Part shown: one piece after another, positions 21,901 to 62,297 of the stretch
Layout of the letters: each line of letters starts with the position of its first letter
Numbering within the stretch: position 1 is the stretch's first letter
Notes under the pieces: model-generated
What the model was told of the DNA's origin: nothing
The model's database searches: none
What the model saw: the letters and a program-made list of their open reading frames with translations, nothing else
Position numbers and translations under genes: made by a program
Source of the DNA: Candidatus Omnitrophota bacterium
Lineage (GTDB): Bacteria; Omnitrophota; Gorgyraeia; Tantalellales; Tantalellaceae
DNA: 64,000 nt
NCBI GenBank assembly: GCA_035403965.1
Contig: DAONGE010000001.1
Coordinates: 11,475-75,474 of the forward strand
Reading direction: 5' to 3'

Positions 21901-24900
21901 TAAGCCTATCATATATCCTGACGGGATTGCGGTTGATAAATCCGAAAAAAGCGCCGTAGACGTTGCACGTGATTTTGTTGACGAGAAATTTGTGACAAGC
22001 GATAAGAAAGGACTTAACAGGGCCGCGCCGCTTTTATATTCAGACCTTGAAAGTTATTACATGGAACGCGCGAAACCTCTTGCTGTCGGAGGAACGACAG
22101 CCGCTACGCTTGAGGCCCTGATCGAAAATAAAGGTAATGAGATTATGAAAAACGCCGATGTCATAGTGCTTTTCGGCACAGAGGGTAACGTAGACCCTGA
22201 TATAACGGAATACATTTATGGCCTGAATTCCGGCAACGAACCGTTAAAATTCGGCGAAAACGGAGAGCTGACCACTCAGCTGATCGGCAAACTTAAGGGA
22301 TATGACATAGCGGCCAGAGAGAACATACATGGACAGCGGTATAGTCAGGCTGAAGTTTTTATTGAAAAACAGCGATGGGTGCTTAAGAATGCGGCTGCGT
22401 GGGATAAAGAGGCTGTTGATCAGGCCCGGTATGTAATAGGGAATTATCTGAGTTTAGTGAATAGCTATTGTCGGGCCATGAAGAATGAAAACGATCAGAA
22501 AATAAAAACAGACATGATCGAGAGTTGCGAAAAGTTACTGAAAAACACAACCAGCCTGTATGAAAAATTTAAGCGAGAAGGGAAGATCCTCGGGTGTGGT
22601 GCGTACATTATCAGCGCGTACACGAACCTTGCGGGACAATATGGGAATGAGGATTTTTATAAGATCGAAAGACTATTGGATACGGCTAAGGAAATATTGG
22701 ATCAGGGTGCCGCAGACCGATATGGGGATATTACCACAGAAGGGGCGAGAGAGGTCATTCCGCCTATAACAAAACAAGCGGAGTTCATTATAACCGGGTA
22801 TATGAAATTGGCCGGTAAGATGAAGTGGCAGGATGACTTTGCCAATGCTTTGAGAATAGCTGAAAAAGCCAGGGATCTGTTGGCCAAATATAGAGACGCG
22901 CCCGGTGTGGAAAATGTGTTTTACGATGTTGGTATTTTTTATGTTAATTTGGCAGCTATATACAGGGATCGTTTTCGGGATATTGTTTTTTCAATGGCGA
23001 TGCTGATGAAGGCAGAGTCTATCCGCATAGAGTTTGGAGAATATAACAGCGCCCAAAAAGGGCATAGTACAGGGAATAGGGCATTATCAAGTTCGATTAT
23101 AAATGGTTATACGTTAACTGCCAGGAAGTTTTCAGAGAAGAAACAATATGCGGCCGCGGTACATGCCATAAGGAGATCCGGGGTCCTTACCTGGCGTTAC
23201 GGGACCGATGAATATAAAGAAAATCGTGATATCGTTGGTTTGATGGTTCTTGCCAATGCAGTATCTAATATTTTGCGAAGAGATGTTCTTGAGAACAAAC
23301 AGGAGTATCTAAATAACTTGAACGACGCTAAGCGTATTTTATGGATATCCGCGCAAGTGCTAAGGAAATACGACACGCCAAGCGTAAAAGCGCAGGTGGA
23401 ATATTTGGTAAGCGCGTATACGAATCTGTCCTATTCATATAAAACGGTTGGAGAATATGGTTTATGTGGAGATGTTTTGGAGAGGGTCGAGCGTATATTG
23501 CGGTCGTATCCGGATCAGCAAAGCGTGAGAGATCAAGCCGAGTTTGTTGTGAGTAGTTTCGCGAACCTGGCAGGGGCATACAGAGAGGCCGGGGATCTTG
23601 AAACGGCCGAAAAATTTCTAAATAGAGCATATAAAGTATTTTTAAATTTTATCGGAGAGTACAGCGTACAGAGGCAAAAAAAGTTCATGATAGACGATCA
23701 TATGCGTCTCAGCCAGGCTTTTGAAGTGAAAGGCGATCGACAGAAAGCAGTGGAATTGTCCGACAAAGCGTTAAAAATAGCGCAAACGAAGTTAGATGTG
23801 GAGAAACATAAGCGTCTGCGCGCGATGGGACCGATACCTTTCGAGATGTTCATCGTTTTTCTGGCATACGGGAGCATTTACAAACATCGTAAGGAGATTA
23901 TTGATTTTATCCATTCAAAAGGTTATTTGCGCCTGGAAAAAGCCGTACGTTTGTTAATACCGGACTTATCCAAATACCGCGTGACTGAATGGTTGCATGA
24001 AAGTCTTCAGAATATATCCATAGGATTAACGATCAAACCGGTCGCGATAGATCAGGGCATGTGGGATCTTGAGCAAAGAATACCTGAAAGAGGCCAAAGC
24101 GAAGAAGCGAAATTCATAGAGATGTTTGGAGGGCATTCCGAGGAAGTTCTTGAATTTATAACCGAGGAACGAAATTGTTCCGAGATATCCGGGTTTTCTA
24201 TAAAGAACGTAAAACATTTTGAAACGGCCGAAAATGTTTCGCGGAATGTATACCGGATCGAGCTGGTATTGAAAGGCGGTCACAACCATGTGTTCTATGT
24301 TAGGGAATACAGATCGACTGACGGGGAATCCCAGATAGGCGAGCTTGATTGGATAACAGGGCCTATACGACGCATGACCGATAGGGTTGAAAAAGCCGCG
24401 GCGGCAGGAATGGTGGCGCCGTATGCTCGACTGTTTATCGATCGTGGAAGATGCCTATTCGTACAGGACGAGGCCCAGGGGATACCGGTAAAAGAATTTA
24501 TAAAAGACGAGGAAACCGCGCTATTGGCCGCCGAATCGATAGGTTATGCGCTTGGGCGTTTACATGGCTTAGGAATAGAACACGGTGATCTGGAAATAGA
24601 GAGAAAAGGAAGCCCGGAACATAATCATATTTTCATTCATGAAGAGAACGATGGGGTCACGGCGAATTTTATAGATTTTTATGAAAGGCCTTTTTCTTTT
24701 TGGAGAAGAGGCAAGGTTAAAATATTTGGCGAAGAAGATGACCTGCTCAATAAGCTTGAAAAATATGTGTTCGGAAAGATAGGCAGTGAAAATCGGGCGG
24801 AAAATGAAATCGCGGATGTATTTACCAAGGCCTACATAAAGGGCAATGTTTCCGTGGGGGAAAAATACAGGCCAAGTCTTGTCGCCAAGATAAAAATGGC

Positions 24901-27900
24901 TTTAGGGAAATTTAAAGAAAAAGTCGCAGATCGTATGCTAGTGCATAAAATCATGGCGAATTCGGTAGAAGCTATACATGATGAAGAGAGGCTAATTGAA
25001 GCCTCTGGCGGTGAAGCGCGTATTGTGAGGAGCGCAAATCATGGCACGCAGGGTACAGTGCAGACTGGCGAGGCAGATGGAGAAAATATTGTCGCGGCGG
25101 ATAACGAGAAAAATGAGGGAACCGTAACAGCAGTAAATGGGGCCGTTGTTTTGGGATTTTCACAGGCGAATTGTTGGACCCCGCTTGCGTTGTATGCCGG
25201 CCTTTTGATCTACAGTGAATTGTATAAGCACCGGAAAGCTATCATAGACTTCATCCATTCAAAAGGCTATTTGCGCCTGGAAAAAGGCGTACGTATCCTG
25301 CTGCCGGATCTTTCCAAATACCGCGTTACAAGGATGTTCCACAAAAGTTTGATGAATATGTCAATAGGGGGAACGATCAAAGAGACTGATGAATCCAACA
25401 AATACGATCTAGAAATAAGAGCCAGGCTTAGTGAAGTTGATGCATATATCGGCAGTAATGAGCTGGACAGCGCGGAGAAAGCTTTGAAACGGGCACAATC
25501 TATATTGTTCAAATATGTAGGATTATATCCCGATGACGCAAATATCAGATACATCGTCCTGCAATTTATTTCCGCATATGGAAGCCTTGCGGAAAATGCC
25601 ATTAGTGTCGGAGATTCAAGGGAATCATTGGAAATGGCGTTTCGTGCGTATAATGCCCAGTACAGGATATTGTCTTTAAAAGCTGTTCAGGAGGAAGATC
25701 GTAACAAACTGGTTGTACATGCGATGGTGGGTATCGCAAAACTTTGCGGATCATTTTTGGATTTAAGCTCAGGAGCACAGATAGCGCGAGCATGCGCAAT
25801 GGCAGAGAGGGCACAGGAAATATTTACGGAAAACAGGAATATTCAGAAGGTAAAAAAGAGAGCGGCGACTTGCGTAAAGGCCTTTTGTAAAGTGTCCGAA
25901 GCATACAGTAAATCCGAAAAATACGACGATGCATTGTCAATGGTCGACAAAGCCGCGAGGGCGTTAAAGAATAATGAGAAGGAAAAAGGTGTGAGGGGTT
26001 TGATGCGGGAAGTTGTGCGTTTGTATATGTCCGGTCTTGATGAAATGTGCGGGAATGAGGATAAATTAAAAAAACTCATGAATGAATTTAGGGATAGGTT
26101 GAAGTCAGATCCGTCGGATCCGGTAACAGAAATGATATTTGCGTATATGATGCTGATCTCCGGCAATACAAGTAACGCTGTGGCTTATGCTATGGACGGG
26201 ATAACCAATAGTGACAATGTATTATTGGATATCGGCAATCAAATCGTTCGCACAGGGAATATGATAGAGATGATCGGAAAAGTCCAGGATGCGGCGGAAC
26301 TGATCGATCTGAGGATAAGAATAGAAGAAGAGCTTTCTCCGGGGAATTTGAAGGATAGATGTATTAGCGAATGGGATAAGAGAAATGCGCAGCTTGGCGG
26401 ATCAGAATATGTTGCTTTAAATAAACAGGAGCATGTATTGACTGTACCCGGGGATGGGGCAAAAACAGTGTTAAATAGTGTTTCGGTTCAAGAAGGCGAA
26501 AAACGAAATGATTTGCCGAGGCGCGCGTTAATAGAATTGTATAGGCAGATTGATGAGTGCATGAAAGGATTTTATGATGCAGTTTCTCATAATGAAACTG
26601 ATAAGGCTGAAGGCCTGCTTGGCAAAGCTAAAGAGGCACTTGATGAGATCATTGAGGAATACCCGGATGCTCATTATCTGAAAACAAAGTTTCAAACAAT
26701 TTGTATTGGATATATTAAACTTGGCGGAGTTATGGCAGGACAAGACAAATCGATGCAAGACCTATCAAAAGCTTTCCGTGCTTTTAATGCTGAGCATGAA
26801 ATGCTGGTGGATGCGAAATACGCTGCATACAGAGAATTGAAAGACATAGACAATGTATTGATTCGGTTGATGGGGCGATGGAGAAAACTTGGCAGATCAT
26901 TTTTACAATATTCTTCAAAAGAAAGCACGAGTATTGATACAAGCGCAAAAGCGATAGAAAAATCCATAGAAATATTTGACATGTATAAGGCGGGTGGAGG
27001 GTTGCCGATAAGTGCACAGGATTATGTAAACGATCTGTGTGATATTTCTGACGCATATATCTACTCAAAATCTGACAATAAGGCCGAAGAGGCGATGAAA
27101 GCGACAGCCGCAGCCGAAAAACTGGCAATGGACAACAGGTCTGGATACGATTCGATGGAGATGTTATGTAAAGTTATTCGGCAATATCAAAAGTGTATTA
27201 TCATTTCGTGCGATAATATGAAAAATGTAAAGAGGTTGATAAGTGAATTCGGCGGGCGAACAGAAAAGAATAAAATGGATGCGGTAGCGTCAGGCGCGTT
27301 GTCACTGTTATATCTGATATCCGGGGAATCCGCGCAAATGATCGCATGCCTTGACTTGGCTCAGTACAGCATTAATGACCGGATGAAAATACTTGATGAA
27401 GCCGCGAAATTTTTGGACGAGTATTCTAAGCGAAATCCGGATGATAAGACCGCTAATTTTGTGCGCCTCCAAATTTGGGAGCGTTGCAGGGTGCCGGACG
27501 GTTCCACTTTACAGGAAGAAACCGAAGAAGAACATCTAAAAATGTTTCTTAGCCATTTGAACGAACGATATAAACTATTTACGGGATATTGCGAAGTATT
27601 TTTTGATACGAAGAAAGCCGAGTCCCTTGCATGGAAATATATGATCTCTTATACAAGGCTATGCAAATTGTTGCTGGATAAAAATACTGAAGACGGGATC
27701 AAACATGCCGAGGAAGCTGGCACGCTGGCGTTTGAAATATTTGCCAGATACGAGGATAGTATAGAAATCAGCAACCAAAAGAAATATCAAATAGCCAATT
27801 GTCGCAGGCTGTTCAACATATATTTGAAAGGTAATAAACCGGAAGACGCGTTTGTGATGATCGACAGGGAAAGAAGATTGTTCGGACTAGATATGGCTGA

Positions 27901-30900
27901 ACCAGATGTGAGCAGGGAAATAATGACGCAGTATGTCGAAGTAGTTGATAGTGTGAAAGACGATCCCGAAAAGATCAATGACGTTATGGAACGGTTAAAA
28001 GAGATAAGGAAAAACGATGTTTTCGCATCAGCCGTTCTTGCGTATATATGCCTGTGTTTTGGGAAAAATACAGAGCTTAATAGGGAGAACTATATAGATG
28101 ATTTGAGGAAAAGAGGGAACGAATATCTAGCAGAGTTGGCAAGACAAATGACAATTATGCGCGTTCTGATCAAAAAAATTAAGGAAGCGAGTGATATAGG
28201 TGAGATAAATAAGATTGAGAAAGAACGAAAGGAAGAAATATATATTCTGTTTTTACTAAGGATAGGTGAAGAGTGGGAGAAGTTGCAGCGAGAAAAAATG
28301 CGCCGGGGAGAACGACGAAGGGCTGACCAGGACGCTGAATCCGTGGAAAGTCAACAAAAGGTGTCAAAGACGCAAGTAGAAGCGTCCCAAGTGGTGGTGC
28401 CTAGTCAGGAAGAATTACCTGTGACGGTTGTTGCGACTGAAACTCCGAAAAAGAGGGATGAGGTGGGTTTGCCTGTGAAAAGTGCAAACACCCCGAGCAA
28501 ATCCGGACGGAAAACGAAAAAAGAAATAGCTTTTGAAAAAAATAAAGGGAGCAAAGATAAGCGGATCGATGAATTGATGGAAGTGATCGATGCTAAAAAC
28601 CCGGACGAAGTTATACGGTTGGGAAGGATTTTGGAAGAAAAAAGGAAAAAGTCTGTAAGAAAAGGAGATGCAAAGGGCACGGAAAGATTAGAACAGGCTA
28701 TTGTAAAAGGAGAAGGCTTTTTGAAAAGAATTGGATTAGATGGCAGTGCGATCCGCGCACATGCTGTTATGCCTTTTGGGTTTGCTCAGGCAGATTCATG
28801 GGCGCCTCTCTGTCTTTATGCCGGACTTTTAATTTACACCGCGCTGTATAAACACCGCGAAGCTATCATAGATTTCATTCATTCAAAAGGCTATTTGCGT
28901 TTGGAAAAAGGCGTACGTATCATCCTGCCCGACTTTTCCAAATACCGCATTACAAGGGCGTTACATGAAAGTTTACTTAACGCATCGATAGGATTAACGA
29001 TCAAACGGATCAAAAATAAAACCGCAGGTATTTCGTCATCCGAATTGTCTGTTGAAGAAGCAGCCGGGTTGTTGACCGCATGGATAAACACGCCCCCTGA
29101 AGAAAGGATAAAATCAGTGTTTCAGCCTGTATGGAGTCAGGACAACTCTTTGTTGGGAAAATACAACACCAACGGACAAAAGGTAACAGTTACTCCGGCG
29201 GTGTTGTATTTTGATCCTATGCTTGCGATAGCTAAAAGCATAATTACATATAAAGAAAAAGAACCTCAAGAGGCTGAAAGATATGTAATTCAGGCTATGT
29301 CCGGAAAAGCGTTTGAAGAGTTGTGTCAGAAAGATGTTCGAGATGCATTGATAAGCTGCGGATATGATGCCTTTTTTAAGAATGGAACGATAGAACTGGT
29401 GGAAAAAGAGGGAAGAGAAGAACTGTTATATCCAAACGGAACTAATGTGGCGATTTTTCCGGGATCATTGCTTGGATTTGTAACGGCGTTATACTGGGCA
29501 AAAGAAGGCAGGTTTGGGGAAGTAAACATGCTGATTGTTCCTCCGGTAAACGGTCTTTGTTTTGGGGAAAATAATCCCGATAAACTCTATGCGAAACGAG
29601 CAATTTTTATCAATCGGGAAAATCATATTGTAAAGGTAGAGTTTAAAGATCTGCTTCCGATTCACGGTCTTGCCTATGCCGGGATTTATAGTAACCCGGC
29701 GACAATGAATGAGATAATGTCAAAAGATTTTCCGGTTATTAATTTGCCGATTATTATAGAAATGGCACAGGATAAAGAGTTATTCAATACTTTCTTAAAA
29801 AATAACGGTATCTCTGTCCCGGAACAGTTGGCGATCGATATTGATGATACGAGAAACATCAAAAGCCGGATGACGGATTTCATTAAAAACTTAAAAAGAA
29901 AAGATGGAATTGTAGTTAAGCCATTTGCCGCTTCGGGAGGGCAGGATGTGTTGATGTTCCGGAATGATGAAATAGACAAAGCGGCCGGTCATTGTAAAAA
30001 ACTGCTAAAAAAGGGGAACAAAGTTGTTGTGGAGGGGCGTATTGTTAATGAAATATGGATTGATAGCAGCCAGGGCCATATCGATTGGAATTTACGTGTG
30101 CTTGCAACATGGGACAACGGTAATATAGTTATAAGCCCGGATTTGATAGAAGTCAGATACCAGAAATTTAGCGACGGACCGGTTAATAAGTCAAAAGGCG
30201 CCGAAGTAATTACATTGAATAAATTTTTTGATATACAAGGTTATTCAAAAAAACAAAGGGAACAATTTCTTCAGGGGGTAAAAGAATTTATTACCGGTGC
30301 TTCAATGGCGATTGAACGTGTCGCGGAGAATAAAAAAGGAAAAAGAGAATATATTAGTAAAGTATCCGGCCTTATTGGGTGGGATATTATGTTGGGGCGG
30401 GACGGAAAATGGAAAGTGATCGAAGCCAATGCCGGCTCAGTTGGAGGGATATCTACTATAGAAAAGCTCCTTCCGATTGAACAAAAAGGCGGCGCGGTTA
30501 TTCCAGTAGCGCGTTATATGGCACAAAATGCTATAGCATACCGTGAAAGATTGTCGAAAATACCACAGGATAAAGAGGGGGAATCGTTCAATGTGATTGC
30601 GGATCCATTTATGATGAATAACCTTGCATGGACGGCAGTAGAAGAATCCTATCTGCAAATTGCAGGAGAGATTGCATGCTATTTGCTTGGCATGAATGAG
30701 CGCCGAAAAGATAATAGTGCAATAAATTTCGATATTTTAGCTAAAGTTTCCCTGATGAGGAAAGATTATAATCAGGCAAAATATTTTGCAGAACAAGCAA
30801 TCAAAATTGACCCTAATGACATCGATATGCAGAGGCAATATGTGTATTGTTTGGCAATGTTGAATGAAAGTGATGAGGTCATTAAGATATGCAAGAGACT

Positions 30901-33900
30901 TGTAAGAAAATATTTGTCAGATTGGTATATATGGACGATTATGGGAGATTCATATCGGCTTAATATGGATGATAAAAAGGCGATAAAAGCTTATGAAAAG
31001 GCGGTGAAAATATACTGTGATAAGGGTCAGACATATTCGAAAATAGGGGATGCATATTCTAGGTTGAAAAATTATGAAAAAAGTGCGGATGCTTTTAGGA
31101 GAGCTTTAGAAGTAAACCCAAATAATAGATATGTATGGGCAAGATTGAGTGATGAATATGAAACTCTTGGATGCAAGGATTTATCAGATTACATTACGGC
31201 CGAAGTGTTTGATAAGCTGGATGAAGGCGAATCGCCAAAAATAGAGTGGTCAAATATACTTGAGCACTTAAAATCTGGGGAAAGGATTGTTGCAACAAAA
31301 CATAGGGAAATGGCGGGCACACATGCTGTTTTTGCATTCGGGCTTGGTCAGGCGAATTGCTGGACCCCTCTTGCGTTGTATGCCGGACTTTTAATTTACA
31401 CCGCGTTGTATAAACACCGCGAAGCTATCATAGATTTCATTCATTCAAAAGGCTATTTGCGTCTGGAAAAAGTCGCACGTATCCTGCTGCCGGATCTTTC
31501 CAGCCTCAAATTCAAAAAATATTTGAGCGAAAAGATCTCTGATCTAACCGCGGACATGATTAATACCATAACCGGTTCTGTCAAAAACAAAGTTGACGGG
31601 AAAAAGATGCAGATCCCGTCCGACAGATTGCCGCGCAAGGCAAGCACGTTTGAACATAACGCGCAGTATGGGGCTAGGGGCAAAGGTCCCGGAGGCATTG
31701 ATCATGGAACAACGGCCGGCGGGAAAAAAATAGACAGCGGAGTGATCACGGAGCAGCGTGCAAAAGAATTTGTCGACAAAAGCGAGTTAACGTTGAAGGG
31801 CGATGACGGCGAAGAATATTTATTCCTGCTACAAAGTCGCGAAGATATGGCCGAAGGCGCATATACAATATCGGTTATAAATAATAAAAGAGAAAGGGTT
31901 GCCAAGCTGGACGTAGGGAAGAATGTTGTAGAAGAGGGTTTTGAGGGAATGTATGATAACGCGATTGTTGTAAGAGAGGATCTTAAAAGGAGGAATATTG
32001 GGGCCATATTGTTCAAATTAGCGATGTATATCGCTAAGGCAGATGGCTTCGAGAAGTTTTTTGTGAACTGGGTGGATAGCGCCAATGAACCTGAGAATGC
32101 GTTTTATACGGCAATAGGTTTTAAGGAAACATATGAGGGTTCCGGAGATTATTATTTTGACCTAAAAGATCTTGTATCCGGAAATAAGACGGTAGAAAAA
32201 ATATCATTCCCACTTTATGACATACAAGTGACCAGAGATCCTGTAACCGGCAGAATGATCCGAGAAGAAGTTTATGATTATATGCCGCTAGCCGCTACTT
32301 CGGAAAAAAGATATTTATATTCAGTCAGAGTGTATGGTCCGGATAGACTTCTTTCCGAAGCCAGATATTACGACAACTCCGGAAAGCTGATAAAGGTCGC
32401 CGCGAATGATTACGAGTTTTTCTCAGACATGTACAGCCGTTGGATGGATATGAATCCGTTTACGGCCAAGGATGTGTTGATTTCCTATGTAGAGCATGCT
32501 AAAGGGAGGGCTCTCAATAATGACGAAATAAAACAGATCGACCGGTTTGTTGTAGCGGTTTTTGATAGGGATCTTATGGGATTTATAAATTCGTACAGTA
32601 AATCTGAAGAAGGGTATCCATATTTTTGTCATAAAGCGGCAGATGATATCTATGATACGTTGCGATCAAAGGGTATAGCTGTGCGGACCGTATGGTATGG
32701 TATTCACAAGGTAGCCGAAGCCGATGTGGCCGGGATAAGATTTGTGCTGGATGGAGCTGCGGCGCAGTTCGAAAAAATGCGAGATAACGCTATCAGTATT
32801 GTAGCCGACGCATTTAGAGGTACTGGAATAGTGATCATTCCGTCGGATCTGGCGCGTGAAATACCGTTTTGTAACCTGATATACAAGAACGATCTTGGGG
32901 GTGGAGAAGTAGGCAAGATTTACGATCCATTAACCGGACGGGAATTCCTATTAAATGCGATGTTTAATTTTCTTCTAGTGAAACAGGAAGGATCGGAAAT
33001 AACGGTTGATCTCGAAACAGGCGGGCCGGTTGTAGGAGAGATAGACTCTAGGCCGGAAGAGCGTCTTCGCGTGCTTAGGGATTATTATACTCTCTCAGAC
33101 AAGCCGGATGAATTTGATAAGTTGTTAGAACGTAGATCTGTAGCCGATCGTGAGATGCTTGAACGGGCGAAAACAGTCGCCGCGTATAACGCGGAGCGCG
33201 GTGAAAAAAGAATGGATCAGCCCGAGCAAGAGCCGGGAAGGATATTTAAGGAGATTTTCGGCGGATCGGCGGAGGAAGTGCTTTATTTTGCCACACAACG
33301 AAGCGACAGGTCGGGGATACTGTCTTTTGTAAGGACGATTCTTAAACATCAGCCGCTGAGGCAATTTGTTGAAATGAACGAATATAGGAACGAAATAGTT
33401 ATGACAAACGGTGTGAAATATGTGTTTGACACAAAGGAATATTCGTTTGATCATGGCAAGGGAGCGAACATAACGGACATCGTTGACGCTGTCGCGGTGT
33501 CGGTCGATAAGACGAGAATGGCTTTCGGTCTTGGGTTTGCCCCTCAAACGGATATGGTGATATTAGGCGGGAAGCTTGTTGTACTACAGGAACCTGTTAA
33601 AGGGGTTATGTTCAGCGGATATGCACAAAGTCCGGCGGATCTTATAAGATCCGTTGAGGCTATAGGATGCGCTCTTGGACAGATGCATAGAAATGGAATA
33701 CTGCACGGGAATATTGAAATATCCGGGGGAAATAAGGAGGAGAGGGAAAGCGTATATATTGACGAGACTTCAGGGGTTCCGAAGGCCTATTTTATTGATT
33801 TCGGGGGCGAGTTGGTAGTGGGCGCGAAAAAAGAATTTCTGGGAGAAAAGAAAAAACTCATCAGCGATATTTTAAAGTACGCCTCTGACCATTTTCCCCG

Positions 33901-38977: not shown

Positions 38978-39059
38978 TCTAATCCCGCATCGATGTATTA
39001 TTGCATTTTATGTTATGTCAAATCTCTGTTATTTGTGATTTCACGAATTTTTTATTATT

Positions 39060-39147: not shown

Positions 39148-39263
39148 GTTTAAATTGTTTGTGTATTTTTTTGATGCCACCGTCCGCGGGAACGCAAAAT
39201 AAAATTATAAAAATTGAACGAATTTGTCCCCAAAATGTGTCTATAAATATAAGGGGAATTAAT

Positions 39264-39788: not shown

Positions 39789-39811
39789 TGACGAATATGT
39801 CCTGATTTCCA

Positions 39812-49000: not shown

Positions 49001-52000
49001 TAAAATGTGAGGAATATTACAAGGGTTCGGATATACAAGGATATTATGTTGGGGATATTAATAAAGGCAATAAAGTCGGACAATATTTTAGTAAATCCCC
49101 GGCTTTTATTTTTGCCGGAGGATCAGCCTTGGCCGTAAATATTTTTAGCGGGGTATTCACATATCTTTATCTATCCGCACAAAAACAGGCGATAGTGGAT
49201 TTTCTTTATGAAAAAAGCCGTATGAAAAAATGGTATGCAGGTGTCGCCCGCCATTTAGCCCGCTTTTTTGATTCTATTCTTTTAGACATGACACGATACG
49301 CCGCCACAAGATACCTGGCCCAATCTTTGCTTATGTCGCCGGGGCTGACGATAAGACAAGTTGGTTCAGATGGGGACAGGTCTGAAAGGGAAATCGGGGA
49401 CAGGTCTGGGATTGATTCCGGGACAGGTCTAAGAGGGAAACCGGGGACAGGTCTGAGATCAGATTTGGAAACGTCCCGTGAGAGTGTTAATTGTGGTAGC
49501 GGATTCTTGGATTATGTTAAGGCGGATAATTTGGAGAGTGTTTTTTCGTACATGGGCGGATTAAAAAGTGCATCGAATATCGGGATAGATAGATTGATGT
49601 CCCGTTTAAGGTCTCCGTTTGCGAATATTAACGGAATTCTTAAAGAATACGCTGTCCAGGATGATCTGGCCGGCTCGCCTGAAGCATTAAAAACCCTTCT
49701 TGAAAAAATAAAGGAGCTGGACGAAATAACAAAAAAAGCGATGGAGGGTGTGTCTCCACACGAAATCAGGGTTAATGCTCAAAATGCTTTTGACGAACAG
49801 ACTGAAAAATATAAACGCATTCTTTATCCCGATACCGGAGAGTTGCCGATCCTTTTAAACGAAATACAGGCAATACTTTCAAAGTTTAATAATGAGCATG
49901 TCAGCGAATTAAAGGGTGAGATAGGGGGTGTACTTGAAAAATATGATGAGGTTTTTGGTGAAGAATCCGGGATATATACTCCGATTTCGGGTGTCATGCA
50001 TATGGAGTGGTGGCAAAAAGTTGCGCCGCATTTGTTACGCGGACAAGAGAATACAATATGGAAAGTCAGGGAAAGTTTTGGGAATGTTGCGGCAAGCGCC
50101 ATACTTGCCGAATTGAAATTGGCAGCGGGGTATAAACACGCAAAATTTACTGACAATGATAACGTTTTTAACATGAAAAATGCCACGCATCCTACAATGC
50201 GGTTTAAATCCGGATTTACCCCGGTCTCTTTTAAGGTCTCGAAATCAAAAAAGGTAACAATTATCAGCGGCTTAAATTCCGGCGGGAAAAGCGTAACCGT
50301 AAAAGCAGCCGGGATTATCGCTTTAATGGTTCAGGCGGGGATGCCCGTTCCGGCGGATGTTGAAATGGATAAAATGTTGTTTGGGGGTTTTAAAAAAGCC
50401 GAAGTAAAAGACGAAGATGTTTCCACAGGGCAGGGATCCAACATGTTGGCGGAGCTGGATGAAACTAAAAAACTTATGAACACGGTAAAACCAAATGAAT
50501 TTATTATTATCGACGATGATATTTTTGGCGGCAGCAGCGAACCGACTGTTGTTGCTTCGTGTTTCAATGCTTTTATGGAAAAGCTTGGTGCCTCGGGCGC
50601 GGTGGTGGTAGGGATAACGCATCATTTAGACGCGTTGCGGGCTTTAAAGAAAGAACATCCGGATGATTTCAATTTTTTATGTGTCAAAACCCGGCCCGGT
50701 AAAGACGGAGAGGAAGAGTCAGAATATGAATTGCAGGAAGGCATAGCCGACTCCAGCCAGGGATTGATCGAGGCGATCAGGATGAAATGGCCCGCTTCTA
50801 AACTTGCCATAAAATATTTCAATAAATTACGCGAGTGGAAAAATGAACCTGCGGTGGTTTGCAACAATATGCCGGCGCTAAAACCGGCGCCTTTAAGGCA
50901 AAGGGGATATTTTTGTTCAAGCGTCGAAAGGGACTTTTTACAACTTACTGATTTTTCCGGAAAATTAAGAAATACAGCCGTTTCTATTATGGGAGAGATA
51001 GCCGGCGATGTCTCCGGAGATTTTGTTGAGGATATTTATGCCAATCCGGAAACGGCTAATAGTAGTGAATGGAGGGAAGCTATAGAACTTTTGCGTACCA
51101 ATCCCGATGTTTTAGATAAGTTTACGTCTTTATTGAAAGAAAATTATAGAAGATGGCCGCAAAACATAAAATTTGAAGAGAGAATCCACAGATATATTAA
51201 TCCCGACAGCGATAAGATGACGCGCGAATTTTTACGATTGATAGCATTTTGCCGCACCAGCGGGATCACGATGCTGGAAAAAAGTGCCGGACGGATCAAC
51301 AGTTTTCTTTATGGTGATTTTAAAAGTGAAATAGTGAAATGGGTAAAAGCATGTGAAGAGATGATCAAATTGACCGAAAAAGAGGTTGGGAAGGAAAATG
51401 TAAAGTTTCGTTTGGGCGTTGATTTTATCGAAATGGTGAACGGGATGAACCGGATTATCGAAAAAGAGGATGAGTTTAATGAGCTTATGACAGGCCTTCT
51501 TTTTGAATATCAGTTTGAGGAAGGATCGGATTTAAATAAGATAAAGAACTTATTTGTTCAATCATTGAAAGAAAATCATGGTAGCGGTTATCTTTTCATG
51601 CAGGCTCGTACAATAAATAATATGATGGAAGAAAAAAACACGGGGCGTAAGTTTATCGAGAAGTTACAGACCAACGGGTTAAATGCGAGATTCCTGAGCA
51701 TCGATAAAGGGTTGATAACCAGAAAAGATGATAGGTCTCAAATAATGGTACAGTTTTGCAGAGATATGTCTGCCATGTGTACCCTGCGTGCGATGGTAGA
51801 TGTAGATGAAAATTGGCCATTCGCGAAAAAAGGCACAGAGGGAGAGATACGGATAAAAGGCGGATGGCATACAAGTCTTGAGGAAGATCCAAACAGGACC
51901 CCGAATAATGTCGATATTTCCGCATACGGCAAAAAGGGATCGCTTTCTATTTACACGGGTTTTAATACGGGAGGAAAAAGCACACTTGCAAAGATGATTG

Positions 52001-55000
52001 CGCAGATTGTGACACACGCTAAAATCGGATGGCCCGTGCCGGCCGAATATGCATCGATTGGAGATTTTTCTGATATACAGGTTGTTTCGGAATTGCTGAC
52101 GGATATAAAGGAAGAACAACGACAACGTAACGGAAAAGATGAGATCGGCGGCGCGCTTGATAGGGCGCTTCATCAAAGTTCGATGATAATACAGAACGCT
52201 ACGCCGAAAAGCCTGATCATTCTTGATGAACCGTTTTCCGGTTCTACCGAGCCTGAAGTGGCTGAGGCTCTTACCGCGGCTTTGGCTCAATCGCTGGTTG
52301 ATAGAGGCGCTACTGTAATACTTATTACGCATCTATTGGACACTATACCGGTTTTGGAAGGGGAAGTGGCAGGGACTCAGGTATTTCGCGCAAAAACTTT
52401 TGAGAAAGATGGGGCGTTATATCCGCGTTTTTCTTTTGAGCCCGGGATTGCGGTGTCGAGTCATGGATTTGAAGTGGCGAGAAAAATAGATTGGCCGGGG
52501 TATTCAAGGGCGCTTGAATATTTTAATGTTTTGAATAAAGAGGAAATGCAAAGAGAACGATCGCCGCGCGATCGGTCCGGTGCGGCAAGGGCGATCTTTC
52601 AGGAGCCTCGGGATTCGAAATATGATGGAATGAAAGGAAGAGAAATAAAAAGCGCGGAAAAGGACAGACGAAAACAGCTCAAGGAAGCAGAAAAAAAACG
52701 GTTATCCTCCGGGGAAGGAAATAAAAACGCCCCGGCGATTTTATATTTTGGCGCATCGACCTTAGAGCTAAATATCTTCACGGGTATTTTTTCATACACA
52801 GGGGCCGTACAACACGCTGAGAAGGTTTCCCATATAGACTTTCGGGACGATTACGGTGAATCATTACGTCGTCTTTGGAATTTTGGACCAAAAGGTGTAC
52901 CAACGGAAGAGTCCGTTTTAAGGCGCTTAGTTGTAAATTTAGCGTATGAGATGATTGTAGAACAGATACGTGCATTTGTGAAGACCAAGTATCCGGGTGC
53001 CGATATTGACAAGTTAGGTGTAAACGTCATGCTTTTTGGCAGCAGCGCTAAAGGATTATCGATAGAGACAAGCGATATTGATTTCGGTCTTTTCATAGAC
53101 GACACCGAGCTCGGAAGTGGCATAAAAGTAGATCCCGGATATAAATCAGCACTCGTGAAGATAGCTGTTTCTGCTTTGAATGAAGTTATAGATAAAAATG
53201 GGTTCAATGTTAAAAGGTTCAGTGTACAGTTAAAGAGGGTCAATGCCAGGGCCAATGATGTTATTATCGCCAGTCATATGCTTTCACGAGAATTTGGACA
53301 CAGAATATTCAGGGATTTAGCGAATATATTCTATATAAACTTTGGACCAATTGAAATCATGAGAAAAAAAGCTTTGCAAATAGTAATGAATTCCGCTAAC
53401 CCCGAAAAGACGTGGGAGAACGTGTGCAAATGGTGGAGTGGATATGCCAAAGTTATTGGCAATAAACACGAGTTAAGGGTTTCTTTAGACGAGATTGTGG
53501 AGGAATCTTTGCTTATATCTTTGCCGGACTTGAAAACAATGTGCAGTATCTACAATATAGAATATAGGTTACCAGCCGTTTCTGTCCAAGAGACTGAGAA
53601 AGGTGATATTTCTATAACTTATCCGGGTAAAGGCCTCAAAGTGCCACCATCGGATAAAGCGCCGGCGGTTCTTCTGATGGGTGGTTCGACGTTGGTGGGA
53701 AATATCTTTCTGGGAGTTTTCGCGTATTTATATTTATCCGCGCAAAAAGACTCGATAGTGGATTTTCTTTATGAAAAAAGCCGTATGAAAAAATGGTATG
53801 CAGGTGTCGCCCGCCATTTAGCCCGCTTTTTCGATTCTATTTTATTAGACATGACGCAATCCGCCGCTACAAGATACCTCGCCAACTCCCTGCTTATGGG
53901 GCCGGGGCTGACGATAAAGCCAATAGATAATGAACCCGTAGAGGCGATCTCAATATCGGGAAAGCCTGATGACGGGAAAGATATTGTATATGTGCCGGAA
54001 AAATATAGAGAAAAACTCGCGGAAAGAGATATCTATCCGCAACGATACAGACAGGTATTTAAGGGAATGATCGATAGATTAAAATTAAATGACAATGAAA
54101 TAAATGAGCTTAAGAGTACACTGGCGACAGTGGCGGGTACTATGTGCATATATAAAGATCCAATGGGAAGAATAGATATGATAATAGACGTATTGAAAGA
54201 GAATAATATCGACGAAAATGGGGGAAGTGAACTCAAGAAAAAATATCTGATAGCGGTGTACATGATAGCGAAGAAAGGGAAGGAAGGAAAAGAAGCGTTA
54301 GATGTGGTTATAGGATCGTTTAATGGAGCTGGAATAAAATATCAGGATATGACGGAAGAGCTTAAGAAACAATATCTGATAGCTGTGTACGAGATAGCGA
54401 TGAAAGGGAAAGAAGCGTTAGACGGTGTTATAAAATCGTTTAGGGGGGAGAGAATAGTGTACAAGGAGTTAACGGAAGAACTCAAGAAACAATATCTGAT
54501 AGCTGTGTACATGATAGCAAGGAAAGGGAAGGAAGGAAAAGACGCGTTAGACGGTGTTATAGAATTGTTTAAGAGAGAGGGAATAGTGTATAAGGAGTTA
54601 ACGGAAGAACTCAAGAAACAATATCTGATAGCGTTGTACGCGATAGCGAGGAAAGGGAAGGAAGGAAAAGACGCGCTAGACGGTGTTATACGATTGTTTA
54701 AGGAAGAGGGAATAGAATATAGCGAATTAACGGAAGACCTTAAGAAACAATATCTAATAGTGGTGTATGAGATCGCGATGAAAGGTCGATATGCGGTTGA
54801 GAATGTAGGAAAGATAATAGAGCTTCTTCGCGGGGAAGGTATTGAGTATAAAAATATGCAAAGGGATGCCGAGAAGAAAAACTATTTACGCGCTGTATAT
54901 GTTCAGGCGCTTAAAAAAGGCAAAGAATACGATGACGAATTTATATTATATATTTCGAAATATTTTTGGGAACTGTCCGGACATGAAAGAAAACCGGAGG

Positions 55001-58000
55001 TTCTCACGAGTGTCACGGAAACTGGTATCAAGTTGTTCAAAATGGTTGCCCCGGAAACTCCCAGAAGCATAGCCGAGTTTATGGAACTGACGGAAAGAGT
55101 TAAAAAGGCATTGGGTGGTTTGTCTGATGAAGAAAGAGAGATAGCGAAAGAATTGATGAACACGGGATCGGCTGAAGATGCTGCAATAAAAGGATTTGAC
55201 AGGAAAGAAATAGAAAAGGTAATGGAAAAACTCAGAGTAGCTTTTGCCGACATGAGAAATGGAACAAGAGGTTCCGCGCCCGCGGTTCTTCTGATAGGTG
55301 GTTCGACGTTGATGAAAGCAGGAGAAGCGCCTGATAAAGAAAAAAGCCTCGTAGGCATTGATCCGACTTGGGATAAAGAAAAGACAATAAAATATTTAGA
55401 ATCCCTGATTCAGAAAACGGAATTAGAAGAAAAAGACATAGAATTTCTAAAGACCTTAACGGAATTTTTACAATGTAAGGATAATAGCCTGATTAGTTTT
55501 ATAAATCAGAATGGACGACTGGACATAGCGGCGAATATTGATTCAATAAACGTTTTAAAATATTTGGTTATAAATTTTGACCCAACTGTTTTTGATGTGT
55601 CGCAGTCTGAAGAAATGTCAAGGCGTTATAAAGAAATAGCCCGACATATGTCTACTGGAGCGTATGAGCATCAGTTGTCACATTGCCAGAGGACTTTTGA
55701 GGTGCTAAAGGAGCTGTGGAGCAGTCTGGAGAAAAAGGGAATAAAAAACACAGAACTTGAAAATCTTGTTGCGGCGGGCAGAAATATCGAAGCAGATTTT
55801 ATGTTGCTTAGACATGCTCTTGGAAATTATGAATATTTCAAAGATGGGATCTTGTCCATATGGATCATAAATCTTGCAAGACGGGAGATTTATAGGATAT
55901 TCAAATTTAATCAGGAGGCTTTAGAATTTTTAAGGAAGTATTTGAACGAAGGAGAACAATACGATGATCGGGATGAGGGGGAGTGGGAAAAATACTTTAT
56001 AAGTTTTGCTGAATTTGGGCTGGGTGAAGCCGCAGGTTTTATTCTAGACATAGATCAGTGGAAGAAACAAGGGTTGGATTCTTATTTAGGGAAAAGTACT
56101 ATAGGAGATCTAGTTAGTTTATTTGAATCCGCTGTAATTAAAAAAGCCGGTCATGATTTTAAATTTTCATCCTATGAGGAAACGGATATCAATGAGCTTG
56201 ATACAGTTGGTATATCTATAACAGACCTGGAATATGTGGCAGAAAATCTTGCTGATAACTCTTGCGGGGCCAAGGACACATCGAGACCATTTAAGATAAA
56301 TTTAAAATTTTCAAATGAGATACGTAATAGACAAAAATATGTTCGCATTGAATTTACAGATACCGGAAAAGGTATGGCACCAGAAGTTTTAGCCAGCGTG
56401 AGATCGGGCGGAGGTTTTACGACAAAAGGTGCTTTTGGACATGGCAAGGGTATTCCTATAGTCTTTGAGATAATAAAGAATGGCGGAGGTTTTTTAGAGA
56501 TCGAATCTGAAGAAGGCAAAGGAACAACTTTTATAATAGGTATCCCGATAACAGTTTCATATGGGACTGTTTTAGGAGAGACAGGAGTAACCGGGACACT
56601 TCCCGCTTCAGATCCGGAAACGTCCCAAGGTGGAAAAACTGCTTCTGCGGTTATTTTTGCGGGTGGGTCGACATTAATCGGAAATATTTTTATCGCTCTT
56701 TACAGCTATTTGTATTTATCCGTTCAAAAAGACGCAATAGTGGATTTTCTTTATGAAAAAAGCCGGATGAAGAAATGGTATTCAGGTCTTGCCCGCCATT
56801 TAGCCCGCTTTTTTGATTTTATTCTTTTAGACATGACGCAATCCGCCGCCACAAGATACCTTGCCAAATCTTTGCTTATGGGCCCGGGGCTTACGATACG
56901 GCCGGTAGAACCAGATGTGGACAGGTCTGAGAGGGAAAACGGGGACAGGTCTGGGATTGATTCCGGGACAGGTCTGGGATCAGATTTGGAAACGTCCCCA
57001 TATGTACCCGGGGCTGTCCCCAAAGTGCCAAGCTTTATGTTAAGCGCGAGAGACATTTTTGAAAGTATTTCGCGGATGAGGGACGATATCACGGATGCCG
57101 CGATGATTGATGAGATCGGAGTAAAAGAAGGCGACAGGATTTTATGCGTTGGGATAGGGTCGTATTGTAATTGTCCGGTTGCCGGGGCGATAAAAGGCGC
57201 CAATGTGGATATTGTTCAGCCGTCTTCATATGAAGGGGTCGAACAGACCCGCGAGCTAATAAAAGCGATAGATATTCTGAGACAGAAGATAATTTCCAAA
57301 TATGGAACGGATCTTATCGGGGAGAGGATCGATACCGAAAGTTATCGAGGCATGGCCGAAGAAGTTGATCTCCATAATAGGACTTATACTGTCGCGATAC
57401 TCCCAAATATTCTGGATGACCCGGCGCGGTCTAAAAATAAGCAAAGCGCAAAATTAAGGGACGTTATATTGAACTCTCTTAGTGACGAAGCCACTATCTT
57501 AATTTCCGTGTTAGGCGGACGGACGGACGAATACGCGTTCGCTTTTGCGGATTACGCCAGAGGTAAAGGATACAAAGTTGAAGTGGGAAGCAAATATACT
57601 TCGGATAATGTTTACAGGGTTCTAAAAGTGACAAGGGTAAATGCGGAATTAGAAAAAGAGAAGGGACCGGAAGTAAGCCTTGAGCGCGAGAGAAAACTAA
57701 AACGCATAACGCGGTTGGTCGAAAATTATTTCGACGATTGGGCAAAGAGTGAATGGCGCGAAATTTTAGATATATTGAATTATTTGGGAGAAAAGGGATC
57801 CATAAGCCCGTCTCAGAAAGAGGAGATATTCGAGAAAATAAAAGTGTTGGTCGAGAATATTTTCAGCCCAAACAAGATTCCGAGAGAATTCTTTGATTAT
57901 GAGGGAGAGGAAAACGTTGCTAAACTTATTGATTTCATGATGAACATAAAAGATGAACATCTCGGAAGCTTAAGATCCTTAAGGGAAGACCTTGTAAAGA

Positions 58001-61000
58001 TCATTCCTCACGATCATATGCTTGTTTCGTCGCTGGACGGATTGATTGAGAAAGTTGAAAAATTATTTAATGAAGTCGAATCCGTGCGTAAGGAAATATT
58101 CTTATCAGGTATGCCTTCCGAAGGGGGACCGTACAATAAAGCCCCGGCTATTTTTTCCCTGGGCGCATCGACCTTAGCGGGAAACATCTTTCTGGGAGTT
58201 TTTACGTACTTATATTTATCCGCCCAGAAACAGGCGATAGTGGATTTTCTGTATGAAAAAAGCCGGATGAAAAAATGGTATTCAGGTCTTGCCCGCCATT
58301 TAGCCCGCTTTTTCGATTCGATTCTTTTAGACATGACACGATACGCTGCCACAAGATACCTTGCGAAATCCCTGCTTAACGGTCCGGCGGATATGATACG
58401 GCCGGTTGACGGGCCGTTATTCCCCGGGTTCCCTGATGGGGAAAAAGGCAGAAATTATCAAGGGATAGATGTAATTGCCCGGTTACAGATCCTTGCCGGA
58501 GGCAATGATAGTGAGGGGCTGGTAAGAGAGTTGAATAAAATCGGGCCTGACAGGGTGCGTAATCTTATGGGTTCCGGGGATACGTCAAGATCCACCGGTT
58601 TTATGATACTTATGGCGCAGATATGTGAGATCTTGGTGAAGAGTGGCGATTTGACTCGGCTGAATAATGAAGTACGGCGTATCGTTGAACAAAAAGAACG
58701 CGACTTCGCAAGGGACGCAATAGTTGTTTCATTAGAAAGAGCGTCGGAAAAGCAATCGGCTACTTATTCGGATCCCCGCCGATCGGCGCGGCGTGACGGC
58801 AAAACCAGTGTGACGCGGCGAACTCAAGGCGAAGGAGAGAGCTCTTCACCGCCTGCGGCACCTCGCGATGACTTGGGATCGGGAGCGTCCCCGGGTGATG
58901 CGGAACGGGAAGAGTTTTTGAGAAAAAATAATTCCGCGTTTTCCCAGATGATGGATGTATTAGATGATTATCACCATGAACGGAGCATAACCAGATATTT
59001 TCTTGCAGGTAGCATGTCCCGCGGGACTTTTGGTGTTCCGCCGAAAGATATGGATATAGCGGTTTCCTTCAGGCTATCCCGTCAGGCGGAAGAAGTGGAT
59101 GTATATCAACGTCTTTACGAAGAAATCGAAACTATCTCGAAAGAGACAGGTATAAGTTTTCATATTATTCCTTTACCGATAGGCCATGTGTTCAATATAA
59201 CGGACAATTCGATAGAACCTACCGGGGAAGTCCTGGGGGGGAGTTATCGTCCGGCTATGGCATCATTGATAAACCCCGTGGATTATAGACTTATTGAAAT
59301 AAGCCGTGCGTACAGAGAAACGGCCGGAGCCGATTTCTTTGCGCAATTATTCTTAAAAATTAAAACATATAATGAAAATGTCCCTCGCGATGACGATCGT
59401 GCCACCCAAGGCGCGGCTGAGAAAAATATCAATGGTTCAGAAACGCTGTTCCCCGGCGCCGGCCCCGGAGCGGCGAGCCTTAACGGCCCGGAATTCACAC
59501 GTAAAATAAAAGTCAGGGCGCCGCGATTTTTGGCGGGGTGGACCAGAGGCCGCGTGGAAAAGGCCATAACTACAGGCCTTACCTATGATGAAGCCGTAGC
59601 GTGGCGTGAATGGAAGTTACGAACGAATAAACGTTTTCCATCGGGGTTCTGGCAATCGAGACAGACAGTTATTAATTACACGCTGGCTACGTTGGATAGT
59701 ATCTCGGGGTTTAAACAGGCAAGGGAGAGCGGCGATATCTCCACAACGGCCAAATTGTTGCGTTCGGAATTAAAAAGATACAATCTTGGTTATAAGAAAT
59801 TTTTCGTAGAGCGTGGGCGGATGAACGCTTTACTGGATAATAATTACGATGGGATACTTTCCGAACCTAATAGGGTATCATCGCTTATCGGACTTGCCGT
59901 GCCGGGACTGATAGATATGAAAAATAAGGACGCGATAAGTCCTGTCGAAGTAGAACCTAATTATTGGGAAAATGAGGAAAACGCCAGATATCATATCCTT
60001 GCGGCTTTGGATAACGGTGTGCCGGGTTTTGCCGATGCCCGCGCCAGACACGATATTAAAGCTATGGCGGGGTTATATCGTGAATATGTTATGGGATATG
60101 GATCAAAAACCGGAAAATATGATGACGGTCAGGTCGCGTTCTTTTGCGAAGTGGGAGAGCTTTTAGGGCTTATAAGCCATGAGAGAAAATATCTGGATAA
60201 AAAGGGAAGCCCGGCGGCTGTTTTACGTTTTGCCATACCGGAGCTTGTTGATCAGAACGATCCCGACGCCATAAGGTTGACTGACGTCGAAAGAAAAGTC
60301 GCGGTAGTGGGTTCTGACAGGAAATATGAAGAAAAATTGATGGAGTATATAATCAAACATTCGGTGGATGGTCGTAGCGGGAAAGAATTATACGAGAATA
60401 ATCCCATGTTAAGTTCCCAGCTTAGTTATGAAGAACGCGCGGATATTTACCGGGCTATACTTTCACGGGATACGCTGAAGCCGTGGGAATGGGCGGCTTG
60501 CGCGTATATATGGTGTTGTGAAGCCAGGGACAGGTTCTTGGCTTCAGACATACTGGAAAACCCGTTAACTATCGAAGAATGTCATGGCGATAAAAAAGTG
60601 AACAAGGTGATACATGATCTTATATTCAACCATAAATTTCGGATAGACTCCGGGAATACTGAGACCCTATTTGGCGTGTTATTCTCCTCGTCTTTAAGAG
60701 TGCATAATATGCCCGAAGGGGTTGGGCCGGACGTCGTATACGCCAATATTCAAAGGGCAAGGGGTTTGGTCCAGGGAGAGAGCGATCATATCATGGATTT
60801 GCGGGCGTATGCCGGATCACATCTATGGTTCACGTCCCCGGCTATGTTGGATCTTTTTTATGGAGCGGATGGGATAGGTGGAGAGGCATATGCGAACGCC
60901 AGGACTATTATCCCCAGAGAGATATTCACCCCTGAGCTTATGGCGCGCTTCAATGAGATATACGCATCGTGTATTTATCGGATCGAAATGCTGAACGGTA

Positions 61001-62208: not shown

Positions 62209-62297
62209 AGTTAATGTATAAAAACTGAATGTTTTACAGATATAGATAGGGAAAAGTTACGCAAATGTTAAATATGAAAAATTCAGCAAAAACGACT

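Follow-up and report, generated by a model that had tools for sequence, protein, structure and literature searches.

A conserved, lineage-specific helical domain recurring between enzyme modules of two giant Omnitrophota proteins

This analysis concerns a stretch of 64,000 nucleotides from Candidatus Omnitrophota bacterium (contig DAONGE010000001.1, positions 11,475 to 75,474), referred to here as the window, and a protein segment, the separator, that recurs between the enzyme modules of two giant genes, g1 and g2, arranged in tandem on the same strand. The separator is an independently evolving all-helical domain of about 85 residues. It occurs 13 times, always in frame, and was traced in a handful of other proteins, of which those with a source name all come from the same phylum. 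The two genes that carry it in the window are as follows.

18998-38977, forward strand: g1, 6,659 aa (19,980 nt), with 4 variant-A separators (open reading frame (ORF) list, Pfam, hydropathy, alignments)
40045-62208, forward strand: g2, 7,387 aa (22.2 kb), with 9 variant-B separators or remnants (ORF list, Pfam)

Both products are tiled by mutually unrelated, cytoplasmic-type enzyme families, as judged by Pfam. From its signal-peptide-like N-terminus and head, g1 continues with a transmembrane (TM) cluster that contains the motif HEIGH, and then with a pyridoxal phosphate enzyme, TPR, ATP-grasp, GNAT and YbaK/tRNA_edit modules and a conserved tail. The order in g2 is signal peptide, head, three GHKL ATPases, a HAD domain (a HAD phosphatase by Pfam), GT2, at least two GNATs, two MutS-V ATPases, a nucleotidyltransferase, HPr and a conserved tail. 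The g2 protein is identical to NCBI HPS19383.1, annotated as 'GNAT family N-acetyltransferase [Candidatus Omnitrophota bacterium]', and was found unchanged in independent NCBI and JGI assemblies, so the giant ORFs are not assembly artefacts.

A first-pass annotation of this DNA had counted 13 separators, four in g1 and, in g2, seven full and two degenerate copies. A profile built from seed copies, together with one short remnant, bore out the total and the four copies of g1, but g2 was found to hold six full and three partial copies. Eleven of the 13 were significant (domain E-values 1e-20 to 1e-48), one was degenerate and one was a 13-residue remnant. Three full copies and one truncated at its C-terminal end lie in g1; the partial copies of g2 comprise one truncated, one degenerate and the remnant. 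The peptide strings first quoted for the motif are present in the two proteins, and the homology proposed between variants A (g1) and B (g2) was confirmed by profile alignment (hhalign probability 99.35%, E 6.6e-21), with a 9-aa insertion in B. The copies are listed below, with independent E-values (i-E) from the hidden Markov model (HMM) where given.

23807-24064, forward strand: separator A1, g1 aa 1604-1689, full, end SIGLTIK (HMM i-E 5.7e-35)
25154-25399, forward strand: separator A2, g1 aa 2053-2134, full, end SIGGTIK (HMM i-E 1.5e-35)
28775-29017, forward strand: separator A3, g1 aa 3260-3340, full, end SIGLTIK (HMM i-E 5e-35)
31340-31534, forward strand: separator A4, g1 aa 4115-4179, C-terminally truncated, without the TR...GLTIK end (HMM i-E 1.5e-20, profile positions 3-76)
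45862-46053, forward strand: separator B1, g2 aa 1940-2003, C-terminally truncated (HMM i-E 2.8e-24, profile positions 4-67)
46471-46740, forward strand: separator B2, g2 aa 2143-2232, full, end GPGLTIK; starts copy 1 of a duplicated cassette
48256-48528, forward strand: separator B3, g2 aa 2738-2828, full, followed by an acidic Gly/Ser-rich linker (DRSGIDSGTG...) to about 48620
49102-49374, forward strand: separator B4, g2 aa 3020-3110, full, end SPGLTIR, followed by the same acidic linker
52738-52842, forward strand: separator B5, degenerate, g2 aa 4232-4266, hydrophobic helix and start of helix 2 only (HMM i-E 0.012 and 0.0016; alignment)
53665-53931, forward strand: separator B6, g2 aa 4541-4629, full, end GPGLTIK; starts copy 2 of the duplicated cassette
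55276-55314, forward strand: separator remnant, g2 aa 5078-5090, 13 aa, APAVLLIGGSTLM; the breakpoint that closes copy 2 of the duplicated cassette
56647-56919, forward strand: separator B8, g2 aa 5535-5625, full, end GPGLTIR, followed by the acidic linker
58147-58410, forward strand: separator B9, g2 aa 6035-6122, full, end diverged to GPADMIR

A six-frame profile scan of the whole window found no separator outside the reading frames of g1 and g2. Within them the distribution is uneven: several enzyme domains follow one another, with no separator among them, in the first 1,600-1,900 and again in the last 1,265-2,480 residues of each protein, and the initial claim that every module boundary carries one is therefore incorrect.

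Each unit comprises 80-92 residues. It starts with a hydrophobic segment of about 27 residues, for example AVLLMGGSTLAGNIFLGVFAYLYLSA, consisting of two stretches of 13-15 residues joined by Gly or Pro and a polar or charged residue. D, E, K or R splits this segment into halves of about 14 residues in 11 of 17 family members, and most B copies have Asn there. K/R-rich helices come next (QKQAIVDFLYEKSRMKKWY; ARHLARFFDFILLDM; TRYAATRYLAKSLL), and the C-terminal end carries the motif PG[LC][ST]I[KR], with an invariant Gly and a near-invariant Ile. AlphaFold2 (AF2), a check proposed along with the original description, was run on the separator with a 17-sequence alignment and gave four helices, at residues 3-29, 31-43, 49-62 and 70-80, with a predicted local distance difference test (pLDDT) score of 66; a single-sequence AF2 model of a separator-GNAT-separator segment was unusable (pLDDT 43). 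Helix 1 has a hydrophobic moment of 0.1-0.2 and a mean hydrophobicity of 0.5-0.9, and the later three have moments of 0.5-0.8 and a mean hydrophobicity near 0, being amphipathic and rich in aromatic residues. The first description of the unit, a hydrophobic first helix and amphipathic helices placed between enzyme modules, thus stands, but not its interpretation as a transmembrane hairpin, as there is only one hydrophobic-enough segment per copy.

The domain is strongly cationic, with 11-12 K+R against 3-7 D+E per copy. In alignments the basic residues sit after the hydrophobic segment, within the next 55 residues or so; counts in 15-residue flanks had no consistent bias. By the positive-inside rule, every copy would be predicted to prefer the same orientation, N-out/C-in. 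The 30 residues on either side of the separators are enriched in polar or disorder-prone residues (fraction 0.6-0.87 versus 0.56-0.57 overall), and the linker DRSGIDSGTG... is conserved after three B copies. A 24-nt tandem repeat occupies 49372-49458, in the linker after separator B4. The polar linkers on both sides are probably flexible.

The separator could not be assigned to a known family, in agreement with the first-pass annotation. Searches of Pfam gave no significant match (best E 0.17). Against NCBIfam the best E was 0.046, for one member only, and no sorting-signal model appeared at E<=10. Comparisons with the PDB were likewise negative, both by profile search (best E 0.13) and by Foldseek (E >= 2.5). 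It had been suggested that the motif might mark giant genes generally. When 1.84 billion representative proteins were searched with the profile, 11 carriers were recovered, among them g1 and g2; the others are one protein of 91 aa and large proteins, some of them fragmentary, of 742-3,929 aa. Every carrier with a source name belongs to Candidatus Omnitrophota, including Ca. Tantalella remota; the 91-aa protein aside, the family so far appears confined to large multi-enzyme proteins with a signal peptide from this one lineage. With 11 carriers only, most other giant proteins either do without this family or contain versions too diverged to detect. Scans of metagenome contigs with A-type and B-type patterns gave no confirmed relatives. 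In the other Omnitrophota proteins the separator is conserved at 30-48% identity and again lies between unrelated modules, which include Fic, transglutaminase-like, kinase-like, glucan phosphorylase, GNAT, GHKL and TPR domains.

The 91-aa carrier (P0008, on a Logan SRR21359020 contig, L004 3625-4175) is a stand-alone separator, and its existence means that the domain can occur on its own, as an autonomous unit. Its gene has 4 nt in common with the end of the gene for a 92-aa minimal nucleotidyltransferase, to which it is translationally coupled, and the pair lies among Phd/ParE toxin-antitoxin genes. P0008 occupies the slot usual for a HEPN partner; as this is a single example, no functional conclusion is drawn from it. 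A HEPN-like reading of P0008 was considered and rejected, there being no conserved Rx4-6H motif. The nucleotidyltransferase module in g2 is also followed by a separator.

A different kind of junction was seen in P0018, a JGI protein that is the longer form of the carrier P0006. Besides one ordinary separator it contains three copies of a hydrophobic repeat of about 110 aa (at aa ~2535-2650, ~3335-3450 and ~4175-4290), with the pattern KGG...SPWAPLAIL.LMLINDIIYE...HPWLAKV...KGLVY. Homology of this repeat to the separator was rejected (hhalign probability 2%). The observation suggests that repeated hydrophobic junctions are a general design that has been realised by several families.

Comparison of the separator copies at the DNA level revealed more divergence than first reported. 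An identity of 85-95% over about 230 nt had been claimed; over the whole codon-aligned unit, B pairs share 67-84% and A pairs 56-77% of nucleotides, the best local BLAST matches between copies reach 73-89%, and variants A and B have no detectable DNA similarity. Synonymous divergence (dS) between copies is substantial, 0.44-1.5 for B and 0.5-1.9 for A, and the ratio of nonsynonymous to synonymous divergence (dN/dS) is 0.14-0.46, which together indicate that the copies remain alike mainly through selection on the protein. Identical tracts of 79, 67 and 62 nt occur among three B copies. Significantly long runs of identical (synonymous) codons were found in two pairs only (p = 0.002 each), a result that is borderline after 27 tests. 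The separators are, then, older duplicates under purifying selection, and the recent duplication or homogenisation first proposed for them does not agree with these values; gene conversion among them is at most patchy, and the evidence for it limited. That their identity lies far above that of the flanking modules holds only in the sense that most flanks are mutually unrelated: where a cassette has been duplicated, which is seen once, module and separator are equally similar between the two copies (78-87%).

The two genes also differ in the types of separator they have accumulated. Within each, separators share 53-84% of residues, versus 40-45% with those of the relative P0003, which has one B-like and one A-like copy; g1 and g2 each contain one type only. 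This pattern indicates amplification or homogenisation within each gene, and most likely each gene multiplied its own copies, which have since diverged while under purifying selection.

One duplication in g2 links the separators to the movement of modules.

46531-48284, forward strand: duplicated cassette copy 1, comprising a separator, a 43-aa tandem-repeat module and the start of the next separator (blastn, protein alignment, Tandem Repeats Finder period 129)
53725-55310, forward strand: duplicated cassette copy 2, the counterpart of copy 1 (blastn 78-87%, protein alignment)

The duplicated unit consists of a separator, the module of 43-aa repeats and the first 12 residues of the next separator, so that the duplication both starts and ends inside separators, with one breakpoint within the hydrophobic helix. 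A displaced module was found in a relative: g1 aa 212-545, directly after the head, is homologous to P0003 aa 1712-2034, directly after a separator. Breakpoints inside separators and displaced modules together support the separators as cassette boundaries, and it is plausible, judging from these alignments, that they form the edges of cassettes that are duplicated and shuffled. The earlier proposal of cassette shuffling is to that extent retained, on the strength of one separator-bounded duplication and of modules displaced in relatives, but the high DNA identity that had been offered as its basis was not found. The module inside the duplicated cassette contains tandem arrays at 47029-47601 and 54229-54785, with a period of 129 nt (43 aa) and 4.4 copies each. 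Its unit is roughly ELKKQYLIAVYEIA.KGKEGKDALDGVI.SFK.EGIVYKEL, and has no Pfam match.

Beyond the separators, g1 and g2 share their two ends with the relatives P0003 and P0004.

40045-40146, forward strand: signal-peptide-like N-terminus of g2, KRRR, a 15-residue hydrophobic core and SFA|QD (direct reading, alignment, hydropathy)
38345-38974, forward strand: conserved C-terminal tail domain of g1, counterpart of the g2 tail
61576-62205, forward strand: conserved C-terminal tail domain of g2, shared with g1, P0003 and P0004 (alignment)

Signal peptides were called by inspection of the sequence, and N-termini of the g2 type were recognised in this way, and by alignment, in g1, P0003, P0004 and P0006. 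The signal peptide and a head of about 170 aa are common to g1, g2, P0003 and P0004 (18998-19600 of the window in g1 and 40045-40700 in g2), as is a tail, also of about 170 aa, with Ala as last residue in all four. The head had no match in Pfam or the PDB, and the tail none in Pfam or, by profile, in the PDB. The layout of the family is thus a head, variable modules joined by separators, and a tail, the last of which may be a secretion or assembly signal.

Our tentative reading is that the separator is a membrane-association domain, a kind of rivet, with membrane binding predicted from the composition of the sequence and from the AF2 model. The hydrophobic segment would dip into the lipid bilayer, or marginally span it, while the cationic amphipathic helices would rest on the anionic membrane surface. 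With flexible linkers as tethers, successive modules of a Sec-exported giant protein would be pinned to the membrane at intervals, and a module with its separator would be the unit of duplication and rearrangement. In seven well-preserved B copies the hydrophobic segment has a Kyte-Doolittle value of 1.65-1.95 over 19 residues, above the usual TM threshold; that of B5 is 1.35.

Several observations weigh against this reading. Kyte-Doolittle values are only 1.0-1.46 in the A copies, 1.41 and 1.56 in P0003 and within 1.0-1.5 in P0004, and a buried helix of a soluble bundle would fit these copies equally well. Rough summed insertion free energies mark the segment as marginal, at +1.1 to +3.6 kcal/mol for B and +4.7 to +7.5 kcal/mol for the copies of A, P0003 and P0004 (+4.7 to +6.5 kcal/mol for A alone); clear TM helices of related proteins give -1 to -3 kcal/mol on the same approximate scale, which was applied without position dependence. 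The confidence of the AF2 model, at pLDDT 66, is modest. All recognisable modules are of cytoplasmic type, users of ATP, coenzyme A (CoA) or nucleotides, and yet stand behind classical signal peptides, a combination that points to no one membrane, or side of it. Finally, simple anchoring does not explain why the PG-L-T-I-K/R end is so very strongly conserved.

An alternation of single-pass TM segments was also considered, in which every separator would make a single pass through the cytoplasmic membrane, by stop-transfer or re-start, so that modules would alternate between periplasm and cytoplasm as giant loops. The N-terminal signal peptide and the hydrophobicity of the variant-B helices are in keeping with it, and published DeepTMHMM surveys predict helices of this sort in large numbers in giant proteins of Omnitrophota. 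Strict alternation in g2 would also put its four short cofactor-dependent modules, the two GNATs, the nucleotidyltransferase and the region aa 5626-6034, all on the cytoplasmic side. It would, however, place the first 1,900 aa (GHKL, HAD, GT2), both MutS-V domains and the third GHKL outside the cell, and it is incompatible with basic residues that always follow the hydrophobic helix, as a single N-out/C-in preference does not allow the orientation to alternate. The copies of variant A, P0003 and P0004 are too polar, and the mid-segment charge in most family members is a further difficulty. Relatives with the conserved head and tail have 1, 2 or 8-9 separators, and the tail might switch sides among them, but other marginal hydrophobic segments do occur in these proteins and could compensate. 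Such alternation is, on balance, unlikely.

Still less probable is that the separators are polyprotein junctions, recognised and cleaved at the PGLTIK/R end or in the hydrophobic helix, with release of the enzymes, perhaps together with a membrane anchor. The best-conserved residues (the invariant Gly, the near-invariant Ile and K/R) do stand where the domain ends, just before unconserved linkers, and it is exactly this PGLTIK/R end that the truncated or decayed copies have lost. In addition, West-Roberts et al. 2023 (10.1101/2023.11.21.568195) proposed, from C39 and S8 peptidase domains, that giant proteins of Omnitrophota are cleaved after translation. Pfam, however, revealed no recognisable protease domain in g1 or g2, and the stand-alone 91-aa version has nothing attached to release. 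A candidate protease had been pointed out within g1 itself, in the form of an S2P-like intramembrane motif and HExxH.

20717-20731, forward strand: HEIGH motif, g1 aa 574-578, LLPGWLIHEIGHLIGR, within a hydrophobic cluster at aa 535-625 (hydropathy, direct reading)

The HEIGH motif and its hydrophobic setting are real, and g1 contains a second HExxH motif, HELAH, both of which could be cited for processing. The region g1 aa 530-656 nevertheless matches no Pfam family, M50 included, even at E<=10, reading it revealed no LDG motif such as the (N/x)xxPxxxLDG of a second TM helix that supplies the third zinc ligand in M50 peptidases, and HExxH is absent from every other separator-bearing protein; the assignment to S2P is therefore not maintained. 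Processing at the PGLTIK/R edge could, for its part, coexist with the membrane binding that we tentatively favour.

A soluble role, as a helical spacer or docking domain, appears about as improbable as the polyprotein junction. Helix 1 would here be the buried core of a small bundle, and the domain would space the modules or self-associate. The low hydrophobicity of many copies, their mid-segment charge and the compact set of four helices given by AF2 agree with this. Helix 1, though, is almost without amphipathic periodicity over some 27 residues, which is unusual in a soluble domain of 85 residues, too small to bury it fully; a strong net positive charge and amphipathic helices rich in aromatic residues are, furthermore, typical of membrane-binding surfaces.

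A bolder scheme, which we regard as more doubtful again, would have a host-dependent Omnitrophota cell produce these proteins as bacterial 'effector polyproteins'. After export by Sec, their semi-hydrophobic junctions, tuned to pass the cell's own translocon, would insert into the membrane of a target cell, and there the separators would anchor, translocate and/or mark modules for cleavage, besides serving as recombination boundaries at which the set of effectors is reshuffled. A host-dependent lifestyle has been proposed for Omnitrophota (PMC10066038). Sec export of effectors would explain the presence of cytoplasmic-type ATP-, CoA- and NTP-dependent enzymes behind a signal peptide, and one may speculate that exported enzymes in need of ATP or CoA make most sense inside another cell. 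If the scheme were true, the separator would be a junction domain of a new, membrane-active sort, with a role comparable to that of the junctions in MARTX toxins or viral polyproteins. As for a selfish in-frame DNA repeat, like the Rickettsia palindromic elements, or a pure recombination sequence without protein function, the dispersed direct repeats, some 250 nt long and identical between copies over as many as 79 nt, might recall one, but it is effectively refuted by the dN/dS values, by conservation of the protein in other species, where similarity of DNA is not expected to persist, and by the lack of palindromic structure (none in an A copy, weak short inverted repeats only in a B copy), and no other gene or frame of the window contains the element.

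Two kinds of known signal were also compared with the separators and rejected. Internal signal peptides for signal peptidase I would have their charges on the opposite side, and variant A lacks an AxA motif. Tripartite C-terminal sorting signals (LPXTG, PEP-CTERM, GlyGly-CTERM) consist of a motif, a TM helix and a basic cluster, and variant B, with its GG-S-T, hydrophobic helix and basic cluster, superficially resembles the last of these. Unlike GlyGly-CTERM, however, separators are internal and continue for 50 more conserved residues after the basic cluster; GG is not conserved across the family, and no sorting-signal model of NCBIfam matched.

The MARTX toxins of Vibrio and relatives are very large secreted proteins with an array of unrelated, cytoplasmic-type 'effector' modules, a repertoire changed by recombination, and their junctions are short unstructured sites that contain Leu. 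As in g1 and g2, a huge multi-enzyme protein has its modules parted by junctions, but Pfam found no RTX repeats, C80 cysteine protease or type I secretion signal in g1 and g2, which have a Sec-type signal peptide instead, and the separator is an 85-aa hydrophobic and amphipathic domain. In flavivirus-type polyproteins the enzymes are linked by TM segments, which double as cleavage sites and as internal signal or stop-transfer sequences. Here too hydrophobic segments lie between the enzyme modules of one long product; g1 and g2 differ in being bacterial and chromosomal, in having one repeated, conserved domain with a uniform charge asymmetry, and in containing no protease domain recognisable by Pfam. 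Both comparisons are to be taken as functional analogies only.

The closest counterparts are the giant multi-enzyme proteins with signal peptide and scattered TM helices already described from Omnitrophota by Nielsen & Lui 2026 (10.64898/2026.06.07.730766), West-Roberts et al. 2023 (10.1101/2023.11.21.568195) and Seymour et al. 2023 (PMC10066038), a 'multi-enzyme metabolic cluster' class (Pfam 'Module 1'). For the proteins surveyed, the first of these papers reports a content of GNAT, HATPase, HAD and methyltransferase domains beside the signal peptide and scattered TM helices. The window proteins have in common with them the phylum, the signal peptide, hydrophobic helices at intervals of a few hundred to about 1,000 residues and tiling by unrelated enzymes, including GNAT, GHKL ATPase and HAD. 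Both are shorter than the members of the Omnitrophota catalogue, set at >=10,000 aa in 10.64898/2026.06.07.730766, and by the definition of an ORF >20 kb (PMC10066038) g2 passes and g1 falls just short. They also differ from the catalogued giants in that Pfam detected no SecA-like, C39, S8 or dockerin domains in them. Thus, g1 and g2 belong to a known kind of protein and are not a new type of system. What appears to be new is that the hydrophobic helices belong to a junction domain that is conserved, can be aligned and is under purifying selection, and that its family is rare and lineage-specific; in the sections of the earlier papers that were consulted, TM helices figure as predictor output and not as such a domain.

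Giant Omnitrophota proteins are a recognised puzzle as regards whether they work intact or in pieces, how they are placed with respect to the membrane, and how they evolve. In at least one lineage the enzyme cassettes of which they are built are connected by one alignable domain. The separator HMM offers a handle for segmenting giant proteins into natural units for structure prediction, the separators define where topology reporters could be placed and where metaproteomes could be searched for cleavage, and the domain can serve as a marker to trace cassette duplication and shuffling.

The surroundings of the two genes are unexceptional upstream, where ordinary chromosomal genes precede g1, including those for MgtE, O-acetylhomoserine sulfhydrylase, CysK, a PAS hybrid kinase, CarB and photolyase. 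Neither Rfam nor a tRNA scan gave any hit in the whole window. Downstream of g2, the final 1.8 kb (62209-64000) has a lower GC content (0.39) and short ORFs only, with no tRNA and no Rfam match. Within g1, positions 25838-26179 (aa 2281-2394) gave a weak Cas1-like Pfam match (E 7e-4, 19.2 bits against a cut-off of 22.3 bits), which is probably spurious. An ORF for an IS200/RAYT-like Y1 transposase lies between g1 and g2, at about 39265-39788, with the motifs MPDHIHGII and RNYYEHIIR and a weak match to Pfam Y1_Tnp (E 5e-7). The palindrome GGCGCGGAGACCGCGCC occurs here in three exact copies, at 39126, 39568 (within the transposase ORF) and 39821, where none would be expected by chance. A direct repeat of 102 nt with 95% identity, 39050-39150 versus 39491-39592, represents a partial upstream duplicate of the HUH region of the transposase.

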